Shown: positions 3,926-39,865, counted from the first letter of the stretch. The stretch: 61,462 nt of DNA from an uncultured Gammaproteobacteria bacterium (GCA_964385285.1 CAYLOJ010000007.1:1-61462), one strand, 5' to 3'. A program made the numbers and translations. The notes: generated by a model from the sequence alone, not told the origin.

Positions 3926-6478
3926 TTAGAAAAAGGAATCTGGAGCCGTGAGATCAGAACCACCGCCTAACTGATCTAACTTACCACGTTCAATAATTTC
4001 CGCTTCGACGATGGCGCGATCGCGGCCGTATTTGAGACGTGATAGTTGTTTCAACTGTTCAGCTAACGGCACATTGCCTGGTGGCGGCATGATCGTTTTC
4101 ATATTGAATGGCCGACAGGTGGTGTTATCAATCAAGAGTTTAATATTCGCCGTATATTTTTCGACGTTGATTACATCGTTTTCGTTAAAGACCGGCGCAA
4201 ATTCTTTGGCGATCATCTCGGCATCTTCCACGCCGATGCGGAACGCTACTTTGGTACCGACGTTACCAAACACAGCATCGCGTACTTGGGAATCATTATT
4301 CTTCACCAATTGTGAAACATACTGGTGAGCCAAGATCATATTCAAACGATATTTACGAGCCTCAGACAAGATGATCGCAATCGAATCGGTCGTATAGTTT
4401 TGGAACTCATCAATATAGCAGTAGAAATCTTTGCGTTGCTCCTTCGGCAAATTGGCACGTGACATCGCCGCCATCTGAATTTTCGAGACCATGATCAACC
4501 CTAACAAACTACTATTCACTTCTCCGATCTGCCCTTTCGACAAATTCACCAACAAAATTTTACGATTATCCATGATCTCGCGCACGTTGAAACCAGATTT
4601 ATTTTGACCAACGATATTGCGCATCATATCGTTGGTTAAGAAACGACCAATCTTGGAAATGACATACGACAACATGTCAGCGGCTTGTTGGCCGGCTTGC
4701 GACTGTTCGTATTCTTGTTCCCAGAAGTTTTTGACAATCAAGTTCTTCACATGTTTCAGTTTTTCTTTGCGGAACTTGGCATCAGTGAACATGCGTGGAA
4801 TTTCAATCAAACTCGCGCCGGCTTCTTTGTCGTCCATCATCGCCAACATCGCATTACGCATATAATGTTCAAACATTGGACCGATCATCTCCTGACCGAA
4901 CAACTTGTAGAAGATAGCGACCATTTCCTGCACAGCAAAATCTTTCTGCTCATCGGTATCGTATTCCAACATGTTCAACCCGACTGGGCGATCCACATCC
5001 CCTGGTTGAAAGACGACCACATCATCAGCACGTTCTTTCGGAATATGCTCTAAAACGTCTTGGACTAAATCACCATGCGGATCAATCACGCACACGCCCT
5101 CGCCATTTTCAATATCCTGGATTGCCAAGTTGGATAACATCACCGATTTACCTGAACCCGTCTGACCAATGACATACATATGACGCTGACGATCTGGTCG
5201 TTTAATCCGCACAGGCGTGACAATACCGCGGTATTCAACACTGCCTAAAATCACACCTTCTTTAGGCATATTAAAGGGCGGTGCGGCTTTTTTCGATAAC
5301 AACCAACGAATATTTGGGGTCTCGGTCGTTGGCAAAGGCATGTGATAGAGCGTGCAGATCTCCTTAGTATTTAAGACAAACGATTTGTGCTCATCAAATG
5401 TCCGGTAGATAAAATGTTCAATCTCCTTCTGATTGATACTAGGTTTGGAGCTCTTGAACTCATTGGCATACAACGTACCTGAATACTGCGCAAAGGCGCC
5501 AAGAATGGTGTGTGTTTTATATTCTGCAATTTCTTTGGTGGCGGCGGAAACGATAACACGAATGTTCACATCAAATCCAGGATTTCCCGCTTTCTCTTCA
5601 AAGCCCTTCACCATCTCTTCTTCCATCGGCGATAATTTATATTCACGCTCTGTGCGCAAGTCGATCCCCTGTTCACGTTTCGCATGATCTTTGAAGAAGA
5701 TATATTTCAAAGCAATCCACTCACGATAAAAAAAGTTACCAGCGACTTCCGCGTGAGCTTGTTCATATTTTTTACCCTGGTGCATCGTGGCGGCAATATG
5801 TGCTGGGACCCTTGCCCAATGTTTGCGAGATGGACGAATCACAAACTGCACGGCTGCTCCTTCATGTTTCTCGAATTTTGACAGCACGTTTGTCAATGCA
5901 CTCATCGGATCTACCTCCAACTTATTGTAGATCAAAATGGGAAACTCGTTGGCTTTTTTTAAGGTGACCCGTGATGCCACGACTACGCCGTTGGGTTCAA
6001 AGACATTGTAATCCTCTACTTCATCGATGACGGCTGCATCGTACTGGGCTTGAAACTGCTGTTCAAAATAGGTGCGCAAATTATGTGGTACGACGGCAAA
6101 ATAGGTAATCAATTGATCTTTATCCGCGACAATCTCAAAACTAAAATGATCGTTACGACCAAACCAAAACTCCTCCCACCGAGAACCATGCGGAATTTGA
6201 TGAATTGCAGTATAGAAAGCTTCCGCAATACTAATACGCTGCTCTTCCGATTGTTTACGATACGATGGATTATCGCCAGACTGCTTCTCTTGCATGTCCT
6301 CTTTGGGCACACGAATCATCAACACGGCTCGCTTCATGCTATCAGAACGATGCACTAACTTGCGCGTATAATTGCGTAACAACATGATGGTTAGATAAAC
6401 CACCAGCAAAGCTACCAGGATATACAAGATGAACGGAACGATAGGATAAAGCAGGAAAAAGTCCAAGATCTGATCCAT
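3926..6478 (-). CDS. Membrane-anchored HerA/VirD4/TraD-like P-loop ATPase
   Basis: N-terminal TM helix. Walker A GQTGSGKS, VIDPHGDL, Walker B-like YIDEFQNY, and ARKYRLNMILAHQ typical of DUF87 / TraD-TraG C-terminal ATPases. Confidence 0.65.
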   Translation of the reverse strand: MDQILDFFLLYPIVPFILYILVALLVVYLTIMLLRNYTRKLVHRSDSMKRAVLMIRVPKEDMQEKQSGDNPSYRKQSEEQRISIAEAFYTAIHQIPHGSRWEEFWFGRNDHFSFEIVADKDQLITYFAVVPHNLRTYFEQQFQAQYDAAVIDEVEDYNVFEPNGVVVASRVTLKKANEFPILIYNKLEVDPMSALTNVLSKFEKHEGAAVQFVIRPSRKHWARVPAHIAATMHQGKKYEQAHAEVAGNFFYREWIALKYIFFKDHAKREQGIDLRTEREYKLSPMEEEMVKGFEEKAGNPGFDVNIRVIVSAATKEIAEYKTHTILGAFAQYSGTLYANEFKSSKPSINQKEIEHFIYRTFDEHKSFVLNTKEICTLYHMPLPTTETPNIRWLLSKKAAPPFNMPKEGVILGSVEYRGIVTPVRIKRPDRQRHMYVIGQTGSGKSVMLSNLAIQDIENGEGVCVIDPHGDLVQDVLEHIPKERADDVVVFQPGDVDRPVGLNMLEYDTDEQKDFAVQEMVAIFYKLFGQEMIGPMFEHYMRNAMLAMMDDKEAGASLIEIPRMFTDAKFRKEKLKHVKNLIVKNFWEQEYEQSQAGQQAADMLSYVISKIGRFLTNDMMRNIVGQNKSGFNVREIMDNRKILLVNLSKGQIGEVNSSLLGLIMVSKIQMAAMSRANLPKEQRKDFYCYIDEFQNYTTDSIAIILSEARKYRLNMILAHQYVSQLVKNNDSQVRDAVFGNVGTKVAFRIGVEDAEMIAKEFAPVFNENDVINVEKYTANIKLLIDNTTCRPFNMKTIMPPPGNVPLAEQLKQLSRLKYGRDRAIVEAEIIERGKLDQLGGGSDLTAPDSFF

Positions 6479-32354: not shown

Positions 32355-32993
32355 CTACTGAGCGCTCATCATCCGGATGTACGCCACCTGCGCACCTTCG
32401 GCCGTCGGGTCAAAGGAGTAGGTGGCGGCGGTCGGAGCAACACTGCGCGTGGCAGAGATGCTCTTGGTTCGCATCGTGGACGAAGAAGCCGAGACGAGCT
32501 GGACGTGGTTGCGTCCCAACTGCTGCGACTCCCGCGCGACGATGTAGTTGAGCGCGAGGGTGTCGAGCGGAGTCCGGGAGTAGACCAGGTAGAGGTCCTC
32601 CTGGCCAAAGGGCGGGTTGATCTGCAGCGGGGAAGCTTCGGTACCGAACGGCACGGTACCTCCAGCGATAACGTAGTTGGACTCTCCGTCGTATGGAAAG
32701 ACCAGTGCCACGTTTGAAGCAGAGTCAACGTTGACGAGGTACACGTACCCCGTCTGCTGGATGGTCGCCACCATCCAGAGCTTCTCACCGTTGTGGAAGA
32801 TCCGCTCCGGATCCACAGCGCCGGACATCGTCTGGTAAGTGACAGTGGCAAGGTTGGTGGGTGCCTGGATCACACCGAGGCACTTCGCGCCGGGCGGACA
32901 CGCGTAAGCGGGCGTGACTGTGACAAGGGCGAGGAAGAAGACGACAAGGAGCAACCACTGGGGCAGTGTCTTGAAGTCATTGAAGGTAGACAT
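32355..32993 (-). CDS. GC-rich secreted protein, DUF4384-like
   Basis: Signal peptide ...LLLVVFFLALVTVTPAYA. GYVYLVNVDSASNVALVFPYDG resembles the DUF4384 core. Start set at the ATG at 32993; the track TTG is at 33011. Confidence 0.6.
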   Translation of the reverse strand: MSTFNDFKTLPQWLLLVVFFLALVTVTPAYACPPGAKCLGVIQAPTNLATVTYQTMSGAVDPERIFHNGEKLWMVATIQQTGYVYLVNVDSASNVALVFPYDGESNYVIAGGTVPFGTEASPLQINPPFGQEDLYLVYSRTPLDTLALNYIVARESQQLGRNHVQLVSASSSTMRTKSISATRSVAPTAATYSFDPTAEGAQVAYIRMMSAQ

Positions 32994-33040
32994 GGAATCT
33001 CGATTTGCCAACGCGCGTTGATGGCATCTAGGGTAGGGGT

Positions 33041-33255: not shown

Positions 33256-33320
33256 GTAGACTACTGTCTTCAGAATTTGAACCCTATTGTGCAGGCGTTG
33301 CGGCAGTGGCAACAAGTTTT
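33256..33320 (-). repeat. R repeat copy R1 (resembles a tRNA 3' half)
   Basis: Minus strand AAAACUUGUUGCCACUGCCGCAACGCCUGCACAAUAGGGUUCAAAUUCUGAAGACAGUAGUCUAC, followed by the palindrome AAACTAGTTT and the promoter. Confidence 0.7.
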
Positions 33321-33365
33321 AACTTCTTTAAGCTTACCCTTTAGTACTTTTCGTTATATGAATAT

Positions 33366-33871: not shown

Positions 33872-33936
33872 GTAGATTCCTGTCTTCAGAATTTAAACCC
33901 TATTGTACAGGCATTGCGGCAGTGGCAGCAAGTTTT
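33872..33936 (-). repeat. R repeat copy R2
   Basis: About 85% identical to R1. Lies between hammerhead 1 and the 33863 ORF. Confidence 0.7.
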
Positions 33937-33950
33937 AGCCGGTTCAATTA

Positions 33951-34016
33951 TCCCCTTTCGTCCTTAATCTTGCGATCTAGACTCGTCAGTTTAGGCATTA
34001 CCTAAAGAGGGTGATG
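33951..34016 (-). ncRNA. Type III hammerhead ribozyme, copy 1
   Basis: Minus strand CCCUC^UUUAGG-UAAUG-CCUAAA-CUGACGA-GUCUAGAUC-GCAA-GAUUAAGGAC-GAAA-GGGG. All core nucleotides are present (CUGANGA, G10.1-C11.1, GAAA, A15.1-U16.1, C17). Stems I and II are loop-closed and stem III is open. Predicted cleavage between 34007 and 34006. Confidence 0.8.
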
Positions 34017-34101
34017 AGTGGGGCCTTGGGTTGCAGGAGACGTTGGAACGTTCGCCGCAACACACGTAGGTCCCACCCGCCCTCATACACCATCTGTCCT
34101 C
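34017..34101 (-). other. Conserved structured domain between the cassette-I stop and hammerhead 1
   Basis: Homologous to 36536-36610. Helix GUGGGACC/GGCCCCAC and inner ACGU-UCCA-ACGU hairpin. Confidence 0.5.
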
Positions 34102-34482
34102 TTACTGGCAGCTCACCTCCCAGCCACCGAACGGCTCAGCGGCTCCGATGATGAATGACGGTTCGGCCTCTGGTGCCTGCGGGCATTGCACCCGCCACTC
34201 GTCCGCGAGCGCCTTGGCCCGCTTGATACTGAGCGGCGGGTCCTGGAACGCCTCTTCACTCATCTGGGTGCCGAGTGAAGTGACATGACAGCGCTTGTCA
34301 CTGTGCTGCTTCCAGAACGCGCAGGCAGACCCCAGGTCGTACTTGACGGCCTTTCCATCAGGGCCGAGAGTCGACGAATTCTTCTGATAGAGTACGAATC
34401 CGCGGACTGCGTTATCGGCAGGCATAGCAGCCATGATGCTGAGAACGATGAGAAGAGTGAAGGCAGTCTTGAAAGTTCGCAT
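34102..34482 (-). CDS. GC-rich secreted 126-aa Cys-containing protein (cassette I)
   Basis: ORF track. N-terminal signal-like helix MRTFKTAFTLLIVLSIMAAMPA. Confidence 0.6.
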   Translation of the reverse strand: MRTFKTAFTLLIVLSIMAAMPADNAVRGFVLYQKNSSTLGPDGKAVKYDLGSACAFWKQHSDKRCHVTSLGTQMSEEAFQDPPLSIKRAKALADEWRVQCPQAPEAEPSFIIGAAEPFGGWEVSCQ

Positions 34483-34513
34483 GGGCGCCTTATCCAGGTG
34501 GTGAGAGATACCG

Positions 34514-34564
34514 TTCCACCTGCTTACAGCTGACTTCTAAAAAATCAGATCTAAGCAAGTGGAA
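34514..34564 (-). promoter_or_regulatory. Conserved 13-bp leader hairpin followed by CUCACCACCUGG, upstream of cassette I
   Basis: UUCCACUUGCUUA...UAAGCAGGUGGAA. Homologous to 37137-37186. Confidence 0.45.
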
Positions 34565-34591
34565 CGAGTAATGTATGAGGGTTGTAAAGAA

Positions 34592-34774
34592 CAAAAAACA
34601 GGCGGTTAGCCTGCGTTGTGGAATAGAGAATGAATGGTTGTTTGGCTCGTACGATTACCTCGTACAGTGTCACATTACCATAGGGAACGTGACCAAACCC
34701 ACTTCATAACTTTTCCATTCAGTTATGCTAGTAGTTACTTGAAGGTGCATGTTTTGAGGCATGTCCTCAAAAAC
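34592..34774 (-). ncRNA. Y-family structured leader/sRNA, copy Y2
   Basis: Promoter TTGACA (34804-34809), 17 nt, TATAGT (34781-34786). Four hairpins. Terminator CAGGC-UAACC-GCCUG plus U6 at about 34593-34613. Confidence 0.55.
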
Positions 34775-34817
34775 AGTGGCACTATACTCATGCATATGAG
34801 TTATGTCAAGAATTGCT

Positions 34818-34883
34818 GTAAACCACTGTATTCAGAATTTGAACCCCATTGTACAGGCGTTGCGGCAGTGGCAACAGGTTTTA
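34818..34883 (-). repeat. R repeat copy R3
   Basis: Lies directly upstream of the Y2 promoter. A 12-nt R-end fragment (AGAGUCUACAUA) also overlaps the stop codon at about 34929-34940. Confidence 0.7.
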
Positions 34884-34939
34884 CGGCCTGTATTGGCTTG
34901 ATTTAATAGCCACAGCATTTTTGGAGAATTATGTAGACT

Positions 34940-36250
34940 CTATGACTGCATTGGATACTTAGCCATGAACGCTTCTAACTCGGCAGATAATTTAGCTTGT
35001 TCGGCCTGTAAACGTGTGTGTTCAGCCTGAGCTTGATCTAGCTCGTCGCCATATTGGTTTAAGTGGGGATCAATTGCTTTTTGAAAATCTGCATGTCTAG
35101 CCGCTTGATCGTGTGCCTGGTACTGGCCACGTGGCAAGTTATGTTGCCAAATGTTTTTCTCTACCCGCGATACTTGAAACCAACCAATGGCAGCACCTGC
35201 CGCTGCCCCTAACGCAGCCATTGGAATGTTTGGTTCACCAGTCTGCCCCACGTTGTACATGACACCCGCCATGCCCATAATGCCAGCAGTACCTAAAGTG
35301 ATATGCGCTACCTTTAACATTTCCCAAATTTGATGAGCAGTTACCCGTAATTGAATAGAGGCATCTCTTGCATCATAGGCATGTTGGCGAGCTGCTAAAT
35401 ACTGCTCAGCATCTTCTGCATCTACCGCTAATTCAAAATATTGTGCCAGCAATTCATTCAAGCGTTGGCCAGCCGTACGTATCTGTTCAATTAAGTTGGT
35501 CACTGCTGGTTCGGGTTCGTTGACTGCAGGTTGGCGCGGATCTTTGAATTTCACGTTACCATCACTCCCCAACCGATCAATTTCTAACTCTATCTCATGA
35601 ATTTCTTCTCGCAAAGATCGTAACTCTTCAGTCAGAGTAGTAATTTGTAGATTGCGATTTTCTGGAGTACCAGCGCGTTGTTCCGCCCGGCGTTGTTTGG
35701 CAGCTCGATAGCGTTCTAATTCTGGGTACTGAGCAAACCAACGCTCAGAATAATCGTGAGATTCCTCCATACGCGACAAACCAAATTCCACCGCTGAACC
35801 AGCCATGGCCCCACCAGCTGTGGCCAACGCTGTCATGGCAGGATCCTTAGTGAGCATATACGCTCCAGCACCAACACCAGTGCCTATAATTGAACTAGAA
35901 GTAACGTAACGTGTTACTGCCCAAGCCAGTTTAGCTGCTTTAGCTTTTATCTCGGCAAAACGTTGAGAATTTTGATTAAGTTGTTCAAGTGCTTGAATAC
36001 TGCGTTCTGCTCCTTCCTGAGCTTGCAACAATTTATAGTAGTGACTTAAGGCACTATCAAATTTTCGACCTGATTCTGCTAAATAGTCCAAATAGGCCTT
36101 TAAGGTTTCTGGAGTGGCTTCACCTTGGAATTCTAAAAGATTTTTAGCATGCTCTTCAGGTTGATGGTTAGGCAACGCAACCTTTGGTTCCAAATGGACT
36201 ATCGGTTCCGGTGGACGACGAAAGGGTTGACGAGTACGTTCAATACTCAT
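34940..36250 (-). CDS. Hypothetical coiled-coil protein with two glycine-zipper membrane segments
   Basis: ORF track. GTGVGAGAY...GGAMAGSAV and GTAGIMGMAGV...LGAAAGAAIGW. Confidence 0.6.
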   Translation of the reverse strand: MSIERTRQPFRRPPEPIVHLEPKVALPNHQPEEHAKNLLEFQGEATPETLKAYLDYLAESGRKFDSALSHYYKLLQAQEGAERSIQALEQLNQNSQRFAEIKAKAAKLAWAVTRYVTSSSIIGTGVGAGAYMLTKDPAMTALATAGGAMAGSAVEFGLSRMEESHDYSERWFAQYPELERYRAAKQRRAEQRAGTPENRNLQITTLTEELRSLREEIHEIELEIDRLGSDGNVKFKDPRQPAVNEPEPAVTNLIEQIRTAGQRLNELLAQYFELAVDAEDAEQYLAARQHAYDARDASIQLRVTAHQIWEMLKVAHITLGTAGIMGMAGVMYNVGQTGEPNIPMAALGAAAGAAIGWFQVSRVEKNIWQHNLPRGQYQAHDQAARHADFQKAIDPHLNQYGDELDQAQAEHTRLQAEQAKLSAELEAFMAKYPMQS

Positions 36251-36251
36251 A

Positions 36252-36416
36252 TTAGGATTGTGTGGATCTTAGTTGAGCTTGGATATCATCAGAAAAAGAT
36301 TCGATGTCCTGGTTCAGTTGTTGAAAGGCTAATTTCACTTCTGCAGGAGAAGCTTTACCCTGAGCGATTTTCTCGCACAAGTCATCAAAGTTTAATGGAG
36401 TATTATCATTCGCCAT
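36252..36416 (-). CDS. 54-aa hypothetical protein, translationally coupled to the 36250 ORF
   Basis: Hand-translated MANDNTPLNFDDLCEKIAQGKASPAEVKLAFQQLNQDIESFSDDIQAQLRSTQS. Its TAA stop lies 1 nt before the next ATG. Confidence 0.45.
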   Translation of the reverse strand: MANDNTPLNFDDLCEKIAQGKASPAEVKLAFQQLNQDIESFSDDIQAQLRSTQS

Positions 36417-36431
36417 AAATAGATATAGACA

Positions 36432-36459
36432 ATTTTAGCAGATTTTAGGAAAAAATCAA
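36432..36459 (-). promoter_or_regulatory. Candidate promoter for the 36416 operon
   Basis: TTGATT, 16 nt, TAAAAT, immediately downstream of hammerhead 2. Confidence 0.4.
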
Positions 36460-36470
36460 GCGCAAATGAT

Positions 36471-36535
36471 TCCCTTTCGTCCTTGATCTTGCGATCTAGA
36501 CTCGTCAGTTTAGGCATTACCTAAAGAGGGTGATT
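36471..36535 (-). ncRNA. Type III hammerhead ribozyme, copy 2
   Basis: Same core as copy 1. The single stem II difference (GAUUAAGGAC to GAUCAAGGAC) converts a G-U pair to G-C. Predicted cleavage between 36526 and 36525. Confidence 0.8.
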
Positions 36536-36610
36536 GAGTGAAACCTTGGGTTGAAGCTGACGTTGGAACGTCACCAGCAACACACTTAGGTTCCACTCGC
36601 CCCTCATACA
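36536..36610 (-). other. Conserved structured domain between the cassette-J stop and hammerhead 2
   Basis: GUGGAACC/GGUUUCAC replaces GUGGGACC/GGCCCCAC of copy 1 (compensatory). GCUG/CAGC replaces GCGG/CCUGC. Confidence 0.5.
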
Positions 36611-37108
36611 CTAGTACCGCATGCACACCTGCGCCGTCAGCTCTTCACAGTTCGCAACGTGTGAATCTGGAGTACTCGCGAGACACTGTTCGTACAGGTA
36701 TCGAGTAGCGACGGGGGTGCACAGAGTGGTTGGATCGAACTGTTCGTAGTCCGACCACGGAGCCATGATCGGCCACTCATCCCACTTCGTTGGCATTCGA
36801 CCCAACTGCAGCGCGCGCCAGTTGCAGTTCGACTCGAGTGCGAGAAGTTTGATACTGGCACCCTGGGTATTCATCAGAATGACCTGCATCTGCTCCTCGT
36901 CACACAAAGGCGGCGGGTGCAATGTAGCGTCCATTTCCGTGAGCATGTACCGGAAGAGATCGGACATCGCCCGCTCTCTATCAAGTGACAACTCGAGCTT
37001 GTGAATCTTCTTGGCCTGCTCGATGAGCGCGTCCTGCTTTCGATGAGCGCACCCGCTGCTCAGGAGGATGATGAGGAGGACGACGATGGTCTTCAGCTGT
37101 GTGTACAT
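36611..37108 (-). CDS. GC-rich lipoprotein, 165 aa (cassette J)
   Basis: Lipobox LLSSGC. Seven further Cys. SD GGGAGAG. Confidence 0.65.
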   Translation of the reverse strand: MYTQLKTIVVLLIILLSSGCAHRKQDALIEQAKKIHKLELSLDRERAMSDLFRYMLTEMDATLHPPPLCDEEQMQVILMNTQGASIKLLALESNCNWRALQLGRMPTKWDEWPIMAPWSDYEQFDPTTLCTPVATRYLYEQCLASTPDSHVANCEELTAQVCMRY

Positions 37109-37136
37109 TTGTCTCTCCCAGGTGGTGAGATTAGGG

Positions 37137-37186
37137 TTCCACCTGCTTACAACTGACTTCGTAAAATCAGCTCAAAGCAGATGGAA
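37137..37186 (-). promoter_or_regulatory. Conserved leader hairpin followed by CUCACCACCUGG, upstream of cassette J
   Basis: Homolog of 34514-34564. The downstream UCUCACC...GGGAGAGA could sequester the SD. Confidence 0.45.
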
Positions 37187-37212
37187 CAGATAGTGTATGA
37201 AGGTTGTAAAGA

Positions 37213-37401
37213 ACAAAACAGCAGGTGTTTCACCTGCTTTCACATTACGATTGATTGTACTCATCTAGACCTCTTTACAGGCAACGCGATTAACTCGCGC
37301 GGTACTACGCCACCATAGGGGGTGTAGTCGAACCCACTTGAACCTGTGTTCAAGTTGTTTCTAGAAAGTGCATGTTTTTACAGATGTGTATTCTGTAAAA
37401 A
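37213..37401 (-). ncRNA. Y-family structured leader/sRNA, copy Y3
   Basis: Promoter TTGACA (37431-37436), 17 nt, TACCAT (37408-37413). Terminator GCAGGUG-AAA-CACCUGC plus U-run at about 37214-37237. Confidence 0.55.
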
Positions 37402-37460
37402 CGCGCCATGGTACACCAAAATACATGTTTTGTCAAGACCTAATAGACACTGCTTTGTAT

Positions 37461-37525
37461 GTAGACTCTGTCTTCAGAATTTGAACCCTATGGTACAGAC
37501 GTTGAGGAAATGGCGGCAGGTATTA
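37461..37525 (-). repeat. R repeat copy R4 (most diverged)
   Basis: ...ACGUCUGUACCAUAGGGUUCAAAUUCUGAAGACAGAGUCUAC, upstream of the Y3 promoter. Confidence 0.6.
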
Positions 37526-37573
37526 GTATTCACTAGCTCTATTCACCTCTATTGAGATGAACACAGTATGCGT

Positions 37574-37660: not shown

Positions 37661-38203
37661 CTACTTCCGCCGGCGGAATCCAAACAGCGGGAAGAGCAGC
37701 GTTGCTGCGAAAGTAATACCTTGATTACATCCTCCGCACTCGACAGAATCCTTGTCGTCTCCCGTATCGCTCTCCCCAGAATCGATCTCGACCGACTGGG
37801 TGTAGAGGTTCACGCTGGTGCCGTCGACGAAAACCGCGAGGGTCGAATCCCGGTTTCCCTCCAACCAGGCCTCGTAGAGGCTCTCGGGGATGTACGCCGT
37901 GAACTCGTCACCGGTCAGGTCATAGTCGAAGTCCTCCCGCCCGTTGGGGAAGAGATCCGACTCACTGGCCCACGTGGACAGCCATTCGTAGTTGCAGACC
38001 TCATCGCCGTCGTCGAGCAGGAAGTTGTACACGACCTGGATTGAGTCGTAGCCGCTTGGGCTCTCGACGCCCGGGGTGAACGAGTTGGCATCGACCACGA
38101 TGGCGGTCGCCGACTCGCAGAATGCGTCGTTTGAGCCGTCGGCTCCCATGGTGTAGTCAGCGTCATCGGCGAGTGCTGCCGACAGGAACAATGAAAACAA
38201 CAT
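37661..38203 (-). CDS. GC-rich secreted acidic protein with a MYXO-CTERM/GlyGly-CTERM-like sorting tail (cassette L)
   Basis: Start moved to the ATG at 38203 (MLFSLFLSAALA signal peptide, SD UAGGAGAG). C-terminus ECGGCNQG-ITFAATLLFPLFGF-RRRK. Confidence 0.6.
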   Translation of the reverse strand: MLFSLFLSAALADDADYTMGADGSNDAFCESATAIVVDANSFTPGVESPSGYDSIQVVYNFLLDDGDEVCNYEWLSTWASESDLFPNGREDFDYDLTGDEFTAYIPESLYEAWLEGNRDSTLAVFVDGTSVNLYTQSVEIDSGESDTGDDKDSVECGGCNQGITFAATLLFPLFGFRRRK

Positions 38204-38316
38204 CACTACTCTCCTACTACTTCTGCTGGAACATTCCAGCAGCCAAGCAACTTTTCGAGTTACGAGGACTAAATAGACTATCGCGTAATCTATTCCATCC
38301 CAGTAATTCGACAAAC

Positions 38317-38460
38317 AAAAAAGACCCTTACTGGGTCATTTCCTAAAAACCTCTTCATCAGAGGGAACAACGACCGGATGGTCTTTTGTTTTGAGTGTTG
38401 TTAACGGAGTGCAGCCTAGCTCCGTCTCGTTACGTAACGAGATTAAATTTTCAATGAGGC
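38317..38460 (-). ncRNA. W-family structured leader/sRNA, copy W2
   Basis: Hairpins UCUCGUUAC/GUAACGAGA, CGGAG/CUCCG, AACAAC...GACC-AUCC-GGUC...GUUGUU and CCUCU-GAUGA-AGAGG. Terminator GACCC-AGUAA-GGGUC plus U6. Confidence 0.5.
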
Positions 38461-38464
38461 CAAC

Positions 38465-38493
38465 AGGTTAAGGCAAAATGTGATTTTTGTCAA
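38465..38493 (-). promoter_or_regulatory. Sigma70-type promoter of W2
   Basis: TTGACA (38488-38493), 17 nt, TAACCT (38465-38470). Confidence 0.45.
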
Positions 38494-38513
38494 TAGGTAA
38501 CGTAAACTAGTTT

Positions 38514-38578
38514 GTAGACTACTGTATTCAGAATTTGAACCCTATTGTGCAGGCATTAAGGCAGTGGCAGCAAGTTTT
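38514..38578 (-). repeat. R repeat copy R5
   Basis: It occupies exactly the position that the tRNA-Glu 3' fragment occupies in the W1 unit. Confidence 0.7.
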
Positions 38579-38602
38579 ACAGTTCGTAAACTGAATATAA
38601 AA

Positions 38603-38732: not shown

Positions 38733-39266
38733 CTATGGGCAGGTATGTCCATCATCGACGTTACCGTCGCAGTCATCATCGATGCCGTCGCAGTTCTCGT
38801 CGGGGGCACCAGGGTGAATTGCTGCGTTGGTGTCATCGCAGTCACTGGAACCAAGCGCGTAGCCCTCGGGGGGCTCGGCCGCACAAAAGTAGTCCCCTGT
38901 CCCTGCTCCGTAACCATCTTCATCCAGGTCCGGATAATAGATGGTCTGGCCGGTCAGCGTTCCCGGCCCCTCGTCTTCGTCGATGGCCCCGTCACAATCG
39001 TTGTCGATGCCATCGCAGGCCTCGGAATCTTCGGGACTCCTTCCACCATAGACGTCATCACGATCATCATCGCAGTCATCGTCATTGGTGACGTATCCTG
39101 CCGGGACGGGGTCACCACCACAGGCCTCCCAGATTTCCCGGGGATCACCACGACCATCGCCATCGAGATCGGCATACCAGGTTTTTGTAGGGTCGCCGCA
39201 ACCCGTATCGTTTTTTACAACGTTGACTGTGCATGCAAGAAGACCGAGGAGTAGAACGAGCAACAT
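38733..39266 (-). CDS. GC-rich lipoprotein with MopE-type putative metal-binding Cys/Asp repeats (cassette K)
   Basis: Lipobox LGLLAC. Two repeats of the form DCDD...PGAPE.CDGIDNDCDG preceded by DLDGDG(Y/R)G. Confidence 0.75.
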   Translation of the reverse strand: MLLVLLLGLLACTVNVVKNDTGCGDPTKTWYADLDGDGRGDPREIWEACGGDPVPAGYVTNDDDCDDDRDDVYGGRSPEDSEACDGIDNDCDGAIDEDEGPGTLTGQTIYYPDLDEDGYGAGTGDYFCAAEPPEGYALGSSDCDDTNAAIHPGAPDENCDGIDDDCDGNVDDGHTCP

Positions 39267-39437
39267 GTACTTCTCACAAAGACGTCCTAAACCGTCCCCT
39301 ATTTTTCAAGCGTTGTGGACTAGCTGTTCAGGCAGCTATTTTTAGCACTACTGGTTGCTACTAAAACTAAAGTCCTGACTGTATCCCTAAACATACAGAG
39401 ATAAAGTTAGAACGTTACTTTAAGAAACTAGGCAATA

Positions 39438-39581
39438 AAAAAAGACCCTTACTGGGTCATTTCCTAAAAACCTCTTCATCAGAGGGAACAACGACCGGAT
39501 GGTCTTTTGTTTTGAGTGTTGTTAACGGAGTGCAGCCTAGCTCCGTCTCGTTACGTAACGAGATTAAATTTTCAATGAGGC
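39438..39581 (-). ncRNA. W-family structured leader/sRNA, copy W1
   Basis: Part of a ~203-bp direct repeat (39438-39640 versus 38317-38519) with only 3 mismatches, all in the promoter spacer. Confidence 0.5.
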
Positions 39582-39585
39582 CAAC

Positions 39586-39614
39586 AGGTTAATCCAAAAT
39601 GTGGTTTTTGTCAA
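39586..39614 (-). promoter_or_regulatory. Sigma70-type promoter of W1
   Basis: TTGACA (39609-39614), 17 nt, TAACCT. Confidence 0.45.
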
Positions 39615-39634
39615 TAGGTAACGTAAACTAGTTT

Positions 39635-39654
39635 GTAGCCCCACAGGGAATCGA
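39635..39654 (-). repeat. 20-nt duplicate of the tRNA-Glu 3' end (att-like direct repeat)
   Basis: gtagccccacagggaatcga is identical to 39793-39812. It cannot fold as a tRNA on its own. Confidence 0.8.
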
Positions 39655-39750
39655 CCACTCCGCCCAATTCAGAAATTGGGCTCCGGGCCGGGGCTTGTGC
39701 TCGTCTGTCACTGACAGCCGTGCTCGCCCGTTCGATTCCTCCACGAACCA
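39655..39750 (-). other. Orphan GC-rich fragment without an ORF, carrying a GGAGGAA + hairpin module
   Basis: Minus strand GUGGAGGAAUCGAACGGGCGAGCACGGCUGUCA-G-UGACAGACGAGCAC... It lies between the two copies of the tRNA 3' end. Confidence 0.4.
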
Positions 39751-39792: not shown

Positions 39793-39793
39793 G

Positions 39794-39865
39794 TAGCCCC
39801 ACAGGGAATCGAACCCTGGTTTGAGCGCTGAGAACGCTCCGTCCTAACCGTTAGACGATGAGGCC
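39794..39865 (-). tRNA. tRNA-Glu(CUC)
   Basis: 72-nt cloverleaf folded by hand: GGCCUCA/UGGGGCU acceptor, GUCU/GGAC D stem, GAGCG-UUCUCAG-CGCUC anticodon arm, 4-nt variable loop, CAGGG-UUCGAUU-CCCUG T arm. CCA is not encoded. Confidence 0.85.

Follow-up and report, generated by a model that had tools for sequence, protein, structure and literature searches.

Two genuine type III hammerhead ribozymes were confirmed, on the basis of their sequence and predicted fold, on the minus strand of the window (the whole stretch of 61,462 nt analysed), each joined to a conserved hairpin situated between a stop codon and the ribozyme. The module probably produces an mRNA 3′ end made by the ribozyme and protected by the hairpin, and insulates adjacent transcription units from each other. 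Hundreds of bacterial hammerhead and twister ribozymes are known, and their role there is still undefined (PMC6765202). The locus is a compact case: a stabilising hairpin, itself conserved, is fused to the ribozyme, the competitor helix and its 5′ UTR partner are both defined, and the module stays intact around unrelated ORFs and across two organisms, offering a handle on bacterial hammerhead function. If the proposed role is true, bacterial hammerheads can stand in for terminators as makers of protected mRNA 3′ ends and serve as insulators where genes are packed tightly in arrays. The ribozyme class is known, and the present ribozyme is a new member of it, from a bacterial subgroup under-detected by Rfam; the hairpin-plus-hammerhead 3′ module with a 5′ UTR complement, reused around unrelated ORFs, is of modest novelty.

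Both ribozymes close a unit composed, in order, of a D2 repeat, a promoter, a structured leader of ~175 nt with a terminator-like hairpin, a 5′ UTR hairpin, an ORF, the 3′ hairpin and the hammerhead. Unit 1 has a strong sigma-70-like promoter (34809–34781, TTGACA-17-TATAGT), a terminator-like leader hairpin (34614–34598), a long 5′ UTR hairpin (34513–34565) and ORF1 (34102–34482, GC 0.59), encoding a 126-aa secreted protein. Unit 2 has a sigma-70-like promoter at 37436–37408, a terminator-like leader hairpin at 37238–37220, a near-perfect long 5′ UTR hairpin at 37136–37188, conserved in unit 1 and in the third copy described below, and ORF2 (36611–37108, GC 0.56), encoding a 165-aa lipoprotein with the lipobox LSSGC; all of these are on the minus strand. 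The two ORFs are unrelated, stand out in GC content against flanks of 0.43, and are swapped precisely between the conserved flanks. ORF1 is an orphan, with no homolog in 1.8 billion cluster representatives.

Two hammerhead ribozymes and their bacterial relatives

Copy 1 is located at 33948–34015 (minus strand), with a predicted cut between 34007 and 34006, and scores 71.9 bits with covariance model R1, described below. Copy 2 is located at 36467–36534 (minus strand), has the cleavage context CCCUC with a predicted cut between 36526 and 36525, and scores 71.2 bits. An earlier note, made from the sequence alone, had proposed this second ribozyme, and it proved to be real: the catalytic cores of the two copies are identical, the sole difference between the ribozymes is a U to C change in stem II that turns a G-U into a G-C pair, and the repeat comparison agrees that they are direct repeats 2519 nt apart. 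The 70-nt ribozyme repeats are 96% identical, and the whole conserved stretches, including the hairpin domain (33946–34090 and 36465–36611), 88% identical.

The ribozyme reads ACCCUC / UUUAGGUAAUGCCUAAA / CUGACGA / G-UCUAGAUCGCAAGAU(U/C)AAGGA-C / GAAA / GGG. The conserved core (C3 U4 G5 A6 N7 G8 A9 and G12 A13 A14) is present as CUGACGA...GAAA in both window copies, and the N-U-H cleavage site as C-U-C (C17), which stem I follows and whose U16.1 pairs with the final A of GAAA (A15.1). Stem I is a loop-closed element of 17 nt in both copies; stem II consists of 4 bp, an A/AA internal loop, another 4 bp and a GCAA loop, and is closed by G10.1-C11.1; stem III has only 4 bp and is open, which gives the type III arrangement. 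In RNAfold predictions of the isolated 70-nt RNA the minimum free energy (MFE) structure was exactly this three-helix fold in all three copies, i.e. the two of the window and the one on the contig L023. Inspection by eye revealed no Watson-Crick complement between the loops of stems I and II; the relatives, too, have the A-rich internal loop that interrupts stem II after 4 bp. The loose pattern CTGANGAG-N10-30-CGAAA has exactly two matches in the window, against 0.13 expected. Both copies would be expected to self-cleave at the predicted sites.

Searches against Rfam reported no hammerhead over the window at the gathering threshold, and neither a hammerhead nor a family for the upstream hairpin over a 5-kb stretch at E ≤ 10. 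When 181 nt only were searched, RF00008 (Hammerhead_3, clan CL00010) was obtained with 16 bits, compared with a gathering score of 48.5, and again no family for the hairpin. The window copies have in common with that family the CUGANGA and GAAA core, the A15.1-U16.1 pair, C17, closed stems I and II and an open stem III. They differ from it in their low score, the fixed 17-nt stem I, a stem II in which 4 bp are followed by the A-rich internal loop and a second helix, the 4-bp stem III, and a host that is a bacterial chromosome, not a viroid, a satellite or a eukaryotic repeat.

Relatives were sought with the pattern CTGACGAGTC-N12-22-GGACGAAAGG in 185,579 representative genomes and in JGI metagenomes. 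Amid chance matches, six distinct relatives were recovered (L001, L003 = L009 = L016, L011, L014, L015 and L017), the first of them from a Saccharimonadales MAG. All six have two features that lie beyond the pattern: their cleavage context is CCUC and their stem I hairpin is exactly 17 nt long, so that their common layout is CCUC / 17-nt stem I / CUGACGAGUC...GGACGAAAGG. The six likewise remained below the RF00008 gathering score in the Rfam search. Since Rfam misses these relatives as well, the low score is a trait of the model or its training set and not of the RNA. The ribozyme of L009 lies ~30 nt upstream of a tRNA gene.

The two window copies and the six relatives were aligned, and 96.7% of the cells in this eight-sequence alignment were paired. 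Two-sided changes were observed in five of the seven stem I pairs and in one stem III pair; none of 500 shuffles reached the observed covariation score, and no slid register came close. Three of the four counted stem II pairs were uninformative, because the search pattern fixed them, and the fourth, constrained on one side only, varies between C-G and U-G. The covariance model R1, built from this alignment, found only the two copies in the window. A coherent bacterial type III hammerhead group thus lies below the Rfam threshold, and such bacterial ribozymes are under-counted as a consequence.

The search for further homologs that the earlier note had suggested yielded six relatives with strong stem I covariation, together with a third copy of the composite unit (L023). 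The genome and metagenome pattern scans gave ribozyme relatives but no further copy of the composite unit; IMG/VR scans with patterns for the ribozyme, the hairpin tip and D2 gave nothing or a chance match; blastn of unit 1 against phage and plasmid collections gave no match; and exact-protein look-ups for more copies returned only the same sample, SRR12487046.

The upstream hairpin and the proposed 3′ end

The 75–85 nt between stop codon and ribozyme are homologous between the units (81–88% identity), and comprise, in order, UGUAUGAGGG, a 63-nt imperfect hairpin and a linker, A(A)UCA, leading into the ribozyme. In unit 2 and L023 the domain begins at the stop codon itself; in unit 1 it begins 11 nt further on. 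The hairpin of copy 2 (36536–36598, minus strand) has an 11-bp outer helix, inner helices and an invariant ACGU-UCCA-ACGU tip, with an MFE of -29.6 to -31.1 kcal/mol (z = -3.4); that of copy 1 (34016–34078, minus strand) has an MFE of -29.2 kcal/mol. Copy 1 folds equally well on both strands, and copy 2 folds 6.6 kcal/mol better on the transcribed strand, a preference due to its G-U pairs; taken over both copies, the bias towards one strand is weak. The conserved structured domain that the earlier note had placed upstream of the ribozyme is present in both units, as one long imperfect hairpin.

The third copy is carried by L023, a 3.3-kb Logan contig from another sample and a related organism, on which the single homolog of ORF2 (P0006, 84% identity) was found. 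Its architecture is the same: 5′ UTR hairpin, ORF, TAG stop, upstream domain, hammerhead and D2 repeat. The hammerhead, the only one in the 3.3 kb, scores 62.5 bits with R1 and differs from that of unit 2 by 9 changes in 68 nt, which leave the core untouched apart from N7 (CUGAUGA, C to U). The paired changes are a compensatory U-A to G-C in stem I and a U-G to C-G in stem II; the others affect three bases in the loop of stem I, one in that of stem II (GCAA to ACAA) and one in the 3′ tail. As judged from sequence, a working hammerhead would be expected to show such a pattern of substitution. When unit 2 is compared with L023, identity is 94.7% for the upstream domain, 95.7% for the 5′ UTR and, at the nucleotide level, 88% for the ORF, with 22 synonymous and 26 non-synonymous codon differences in the latter.

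The structure of the hairpin is solidly conserved. Between units 1 and 2, 13 of the 63 hairpin positions are substituted and 21 of ~25 pairs are shared; when the same 13 substitutions were placed at random positions in copy 1 (5000 trials), the mean stability was -14.8 kcal/mol compared with -29.6 kcal/mol observed, and the observed stability was matched in 0.04% of the trials (p about 4e-4) and the observed number of common pairs in 0.4%. Covariation was also claimed for this domain in the earlier note, and it is real but thin, because only three composite copies are known; among these three sequences there are only one or two true double changes. For the helix GUGGGACC/GGCCCCAC, which becomes GUGGAACC/GGUUUCAC, the claim stands for one double change and for an A.C mismatch converted to A-U, and the remaining changes are one-sided and compatible. 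In the 11-bp outer helix the three copies show a single double compensatory change; three further changes are one-sided and compatible, and unit 1 has one A.C mismatch. The proposed inner change of GCGG/CCUGC to GCUG/CAGC holds as regards the invariant tip but is less clean as covariation, since the programs pair the inner part somewhat differently in each copy. The maintenance of stability despite 13 substitutions, and the conservation of the domain above that of the ORF, are stronger evidence than the covariation.

Two other identities for the hairpin were tried and rejected. As an intrinsic terminator it lacks a U-tract, being followed by AUCACCCUC, and a terminator scan found no terminator-like site between either ORF and its own ribozyme. 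As an attC site it lacks the R″ (RYYYAAC) and R′ (GTTRRRY) core, the triplets, by reading, running GTT...AAC on both strands.

The preferred interpretation starts from the hammerhead features, their conservation and covariation, the conserved hairpin structure, the missing U-tract terminator and the predicted folds. Each unit would represent the 3′ end of a modular mRNA whose ORF slot differs between the units of the window. With no intrinsic terminator past the ORF, transcription would pass through the hairpin and the ribozyme; the hammerhead would then fold and cut after ...ACCCUC, leaving the upstream mRNA with a 2′,3′-cyclic phosphate end immediately 3′ of a very stable hairpin. Its last five nucleotides (CCCUC) could fold back on GAGGG into a blunt, fully paired terminus, which would be hard for 3′ exonucleases to enter and would not be re-ligated; in the predicted fold of the 5′ cleavage product these five nucleotides are paired and the molecule is a blunt hairpin of -37 to -40 kcal/mol. 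The downstream RNA would begin with a 5′-OH, followed by the compact body of the ribozyme. For unit 1 and L023 it would be read-through into the next cassette, and in unit 2 a gene pair encoding 54 and 436 aa (34940–36416, minus strand); in either case the cut would uncouple it from the upstream message. By protecting one end and uncoupling the other, the module would act as a ribozyme-made 3′ end and as an insulator between tightly packed transcription units. This model is supported by the recurrence, in four of the six otherwise unrelated family members, of a stable hairpin ending 6–7 nt before the cut site. Most members of the group have a GC-rich hairpin just 5′ of the cut; L001 has no hairpin adjoining its ribozyme.

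In ribozyme insulators of the RiboJ type, which are synthetic, the hairpin lies downstream and belongs to the new 5′ end; the present hairpin is natural and lies upstream, at the new 3′ end. The glmS ribozyme cleaves in cis in the 5′ UTR of a bacterial mRNA, needs a metabolite cofactor and passes its 5′-OH product to cellular RNases. The present ribozyme resembles it in cleaving in cis in a bacterial mRNA, and differs in fold, in its position outside the 5′ UTR and in having no evident ligand pocket. As far as they are described in PMC6765202 and PMC5502269, the bacterial 3′ UTR ribozymes of Felletti et al. (2016) are alike in that a ribozyme cut within an untranslated region defines where the transcript ends and a hairpin beside it determines stability; those systems are engineered or reporter constructs, whereas the present one is natural. 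For bacterial hammerheads, processing into transcripts of different stability is suspected and unproven (PMC6765202).

A close known arrangement is that of the clustered bacterial hammerheads of Perreault et al. (2011, PMC3088659). These lie on either side of single genes and, in vitro, cut polycistronic RNAs, a behaviour that also supports the protected-end model. There too, ribozymes in the same orientation surround single genes or short blocks of unknown function in an island-like region, the role proposed being the cutting of long transcripts into gene-length mRNAs; circular or spliced products were raised as a possibility and were not detected (PMC3088659). The present locus differs in having no phage or integrase genes nearby, in the fusion of the ribozyme to a long hairpin within a fixed 5′/3′ UTR frame around unrelated ORFs, and in a neighbouring gene whose closest protein homolog is found in a Patescibacteria MAG.

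The competing helix and its 5′ UTR partner

The element UGUAUGAGGG lies at 36601–36610 (minus strand) in unit 2, right after the ORF2 stop, and at 34080–34089 (minus strand) in unit 1, with its GAGGG at 36605–36601 and 34084–34080, respectively. As the earlier note had pointed out, this GAGGG can pair with the CCCUC of stem III (36530–36526 in unit 2). The pairing is the local MFE solution in all three copies, and enforcing stem III over it costs 2.5–5.2 kcal/mol in local folds. A second partner exists in the 5′ UTR, just past the leader terminator: in unit 1, CCCUCAUACA (34572–34581, minus strand) is a perfect complement of 34080–34089, and in unit 2, CCUUCAUACA (37194–37203, minus strand), read identically in L023, is a complement of the 3′ UGUAUGAGGG with one G-U. 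In folds of the whole mRNAs this 10-bp 5′/3′ UTR helix formed with P about 0.99 in all three, two of which carry unrelated ORFs, and GAGGG:CCCUC was gone. For the UTR pair of unit 1, a 10-nt complement was reached in 23 of 5000 shuffles (p about 0.005).

The earlier note had suggested that the competing fold gates cleavage. The competing helix is indeed predicted locally; gating is less clear, as the 5′ UTR takes GAGGG in whole-mRNA folds and a clamp is also possible. On these models, GAGGG:CCCUC formed after cleavage would act as a plain clamp of the new 3′ end, although GAGGG may have another main partner, given its pairing with the 5′ UTR. The local preference for GAGGG:CCCUC over stem III implies, for its part, that the ribozyme could often be held off and need not be constitutive.

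A gated ribozyme has some chance of being the correct description. GAGGG would sequester the CCCUC of stem III and keep the hammerhead off until the 5′ UTR element (CCYUCAUACA) or a terminating ribosome frees it; capture by the 5′ UTR would mark a transcript begun at its own promoter and extended past the leader terminator, so that cleavage would report the history of the mRNA. Consistent with this, the alternative helix is locally the better one in every copy, its transcription precedes that of the 3′ strand of stem III, and the 10-nt complement has been kept in three copies, in which a C to U change preserves a G-U pair. In unit 2 and L023 just 5 nt separate the stop codon from GAGGG; in unit 1 the distance is 17 nt, so that opening by the ribosome fails for that unit and is not common to all. 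Long-range pairing over a translated ORF of 400–500 nt is, moreover, an unreliable prediction, the nearest-neighbour model ignores the tertiary stabilisation of hammerheads, and other family members, L009 perhaps excepted, have hairpins but no obvious GAGG competitor. The partners of both helices are invariant save for one G-C to G-U change, so neither helix can be tested by covariation. A regulated switch is a possible and attractive alternative, which the data allow but do not demand. It is doubtful whether the whole scheme applies, in which the substrate strand is held by the GAGGG decoy and freed by the 10-nt partner in the 5′ UTR, cleavage, stabilisation and insulation are licensed end-to-end, and the frame, in a Patescibacteria-like genome, is a plug-in slot for unrelated GC-rich secreted-protein ORFs.

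The cassette array and its genomic context

The units belong to an array of cassettes on the same strand (about 32.2–39.7 kb) adjoining a tRNA-Glu gene, in a window that is chromosomal, with dnaK/dnaJ/grpE, cysS, gap and leu/ilv genes. Promoter-like sites lie 3′ of the ribozymes, and the gene pair after ribozyme 2 has its own at 36459–36432. This pair has no Pfam match and is kept as a pair, at 39–55% identity, in a Patescibacteria-labelled MAG and on two Logan contigs, which is the sole hint at the lineage of the window; the homologs of its 436-aa gene (L018–L021) have no ribozyme alongside. No integrase, transposase, recombinase or reverse transcriptase was found among the 50 ORFs scanned in the window.

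Cassette exchange or integration at the DNA level, in the manner of an integron or island, could instead use as its sites the hairpin, the 59-nt D2 repeat and a 10-bp inverted repeat on either side of the ORF, with the ribozyme as a passenger of the mobile cassette. Such recombination would account for unrelated, GC-rich ORFs swapped precisely within identical flanks; D2 direct repeats bound the cassettes of an array beside a tRNA-Glu with a duplicated tRNA 3′ fragment, the ORF2 copy of L023 has a different downstream neighbour and a D2 flank of the unit 1 type, and the hairpin of copy 1 is equally stable on both strands. That of copy 2, however, favours the transcribed strand, neither the attC consensus of integron cassettes nor an IntI integrase, or any other recombinase or transposase, was found in the hairpin or among the 50 ORFs of the window, and the strict conservation of the hammerhead core would be left without explanation. 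This reading is improbable.

It is very improbable that the ribozymes are inactive relics or chance look-alikes that do not cleave. The Rfam score below threshold, the 4-bp stem III and the missing evident Watson-Crick loop-loop contact would fit such a view; against it, the two pattern matches far exceed the 0.13 expected, the core is perfect in three diverged copies in which N7, loops and paired positions change compatibly, covariation is family-wide, and Rfam misses the rest of the bacterial group too.

Scarcely credible is a retrozyme- or viroid-like element, in which both hammerheads would cut and free a 2519-nt RNA to be circularised and perhaps copied; the retrozyme-like form had been raised in the earlier note. 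Plant retrozymes (Cervera et al. 2016, PMC4918200) also have two hammerheads in direct repeats, as the two identical-core ribozymes are here, but they are non-coding, have LTR-like repeats and depend on circular RNA and reverse transcription to propagate. In the present locus the repeats are the 150-nt 3′ UTR ends of two separate genes; the interval holds the native gene pair, conserved without a ribozyme in the Patescibacteria MAG, together with a terminator-like hairpin and a sigma-70-like promoter (11 of 12); neither a reverse transcriptase nor an integrase occurs among the 50 window ORFs scanned; and the L023 unit has one ribozyme only.

Several further features of the array were recorded. 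The leaders of both units (34598–34780 and 37220–37407, minus strand) are structured RNAs with 9 compensatory pairs between copies and no Rfam match, and could be an unknown riboswitch, an attenuator or a small RNA gene. D2 bounds every cassette (33264–33322, 33880–33938, 34826–34884, 37468–37526 and 38522–38580; about 765–830 in L023). It was rejected as a structured RNA (alignment fold of -3.6 kcal/mol, no covariation) and as a tRNA remnant (ARAGORN finds no tRNA there). A coding imprint, ...C[LI]QNLNP[IM]VQ[AT]LR[QK]W[QR]QVL, was detected on its plus strand, opposite to all cassette genes: in a core of 17 codons all differences among four copies are synonymous, and this frame has no stops and, at 65:66, the best synonymous to non-synonymous ratio among all six. 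It lacks a conserved start codon, and searching with a profile of the D2 peptide gave no protein match. D2 could represent the displaced end of a gene, left as an att-type remnant by serial integrations.

Two other GC-rich ORFs for secreted proteins are each preceded by a copy of a 216-nt direct repeat (38302–38517 and 39423–39638, 96% identical), in which a TTGACA resembling a promoter and two terminator-like hairpins occur. The copy nearer to tRNA-Glu (39793–39865) abuts a duplicated tRNA-Glu 3′-end fragment (39638–39660), and the other abuts a D2 repeat at the equivalent junction (GTAG), an arrangement that suggests tandem site-specific insertions at tRNA-Glu. Small ORFs of 56–60% GC form islands in flanks of ~43–46% GC, both within the array (32355–33011, 34102–34482, 36611–37108, 37661–38314 and 38733–39266) and at about 25.2–27.5 kb and 10.5–12.5 kb. 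By eye, all five of the array start with a signal peptide or a lipobox; among the high-GC small ORFs, one has MopE-type Cu-binding motifs and one a DUF4384. These ORFs may be foreign, or native genes of odd composition. At 3926–6478 (minus strand) an 850-aa protein with TrwB/TraG-type domains of type IV secretion coupling proteins is encoded, a possible sign of a conjugative or integrative element in another part of the window.
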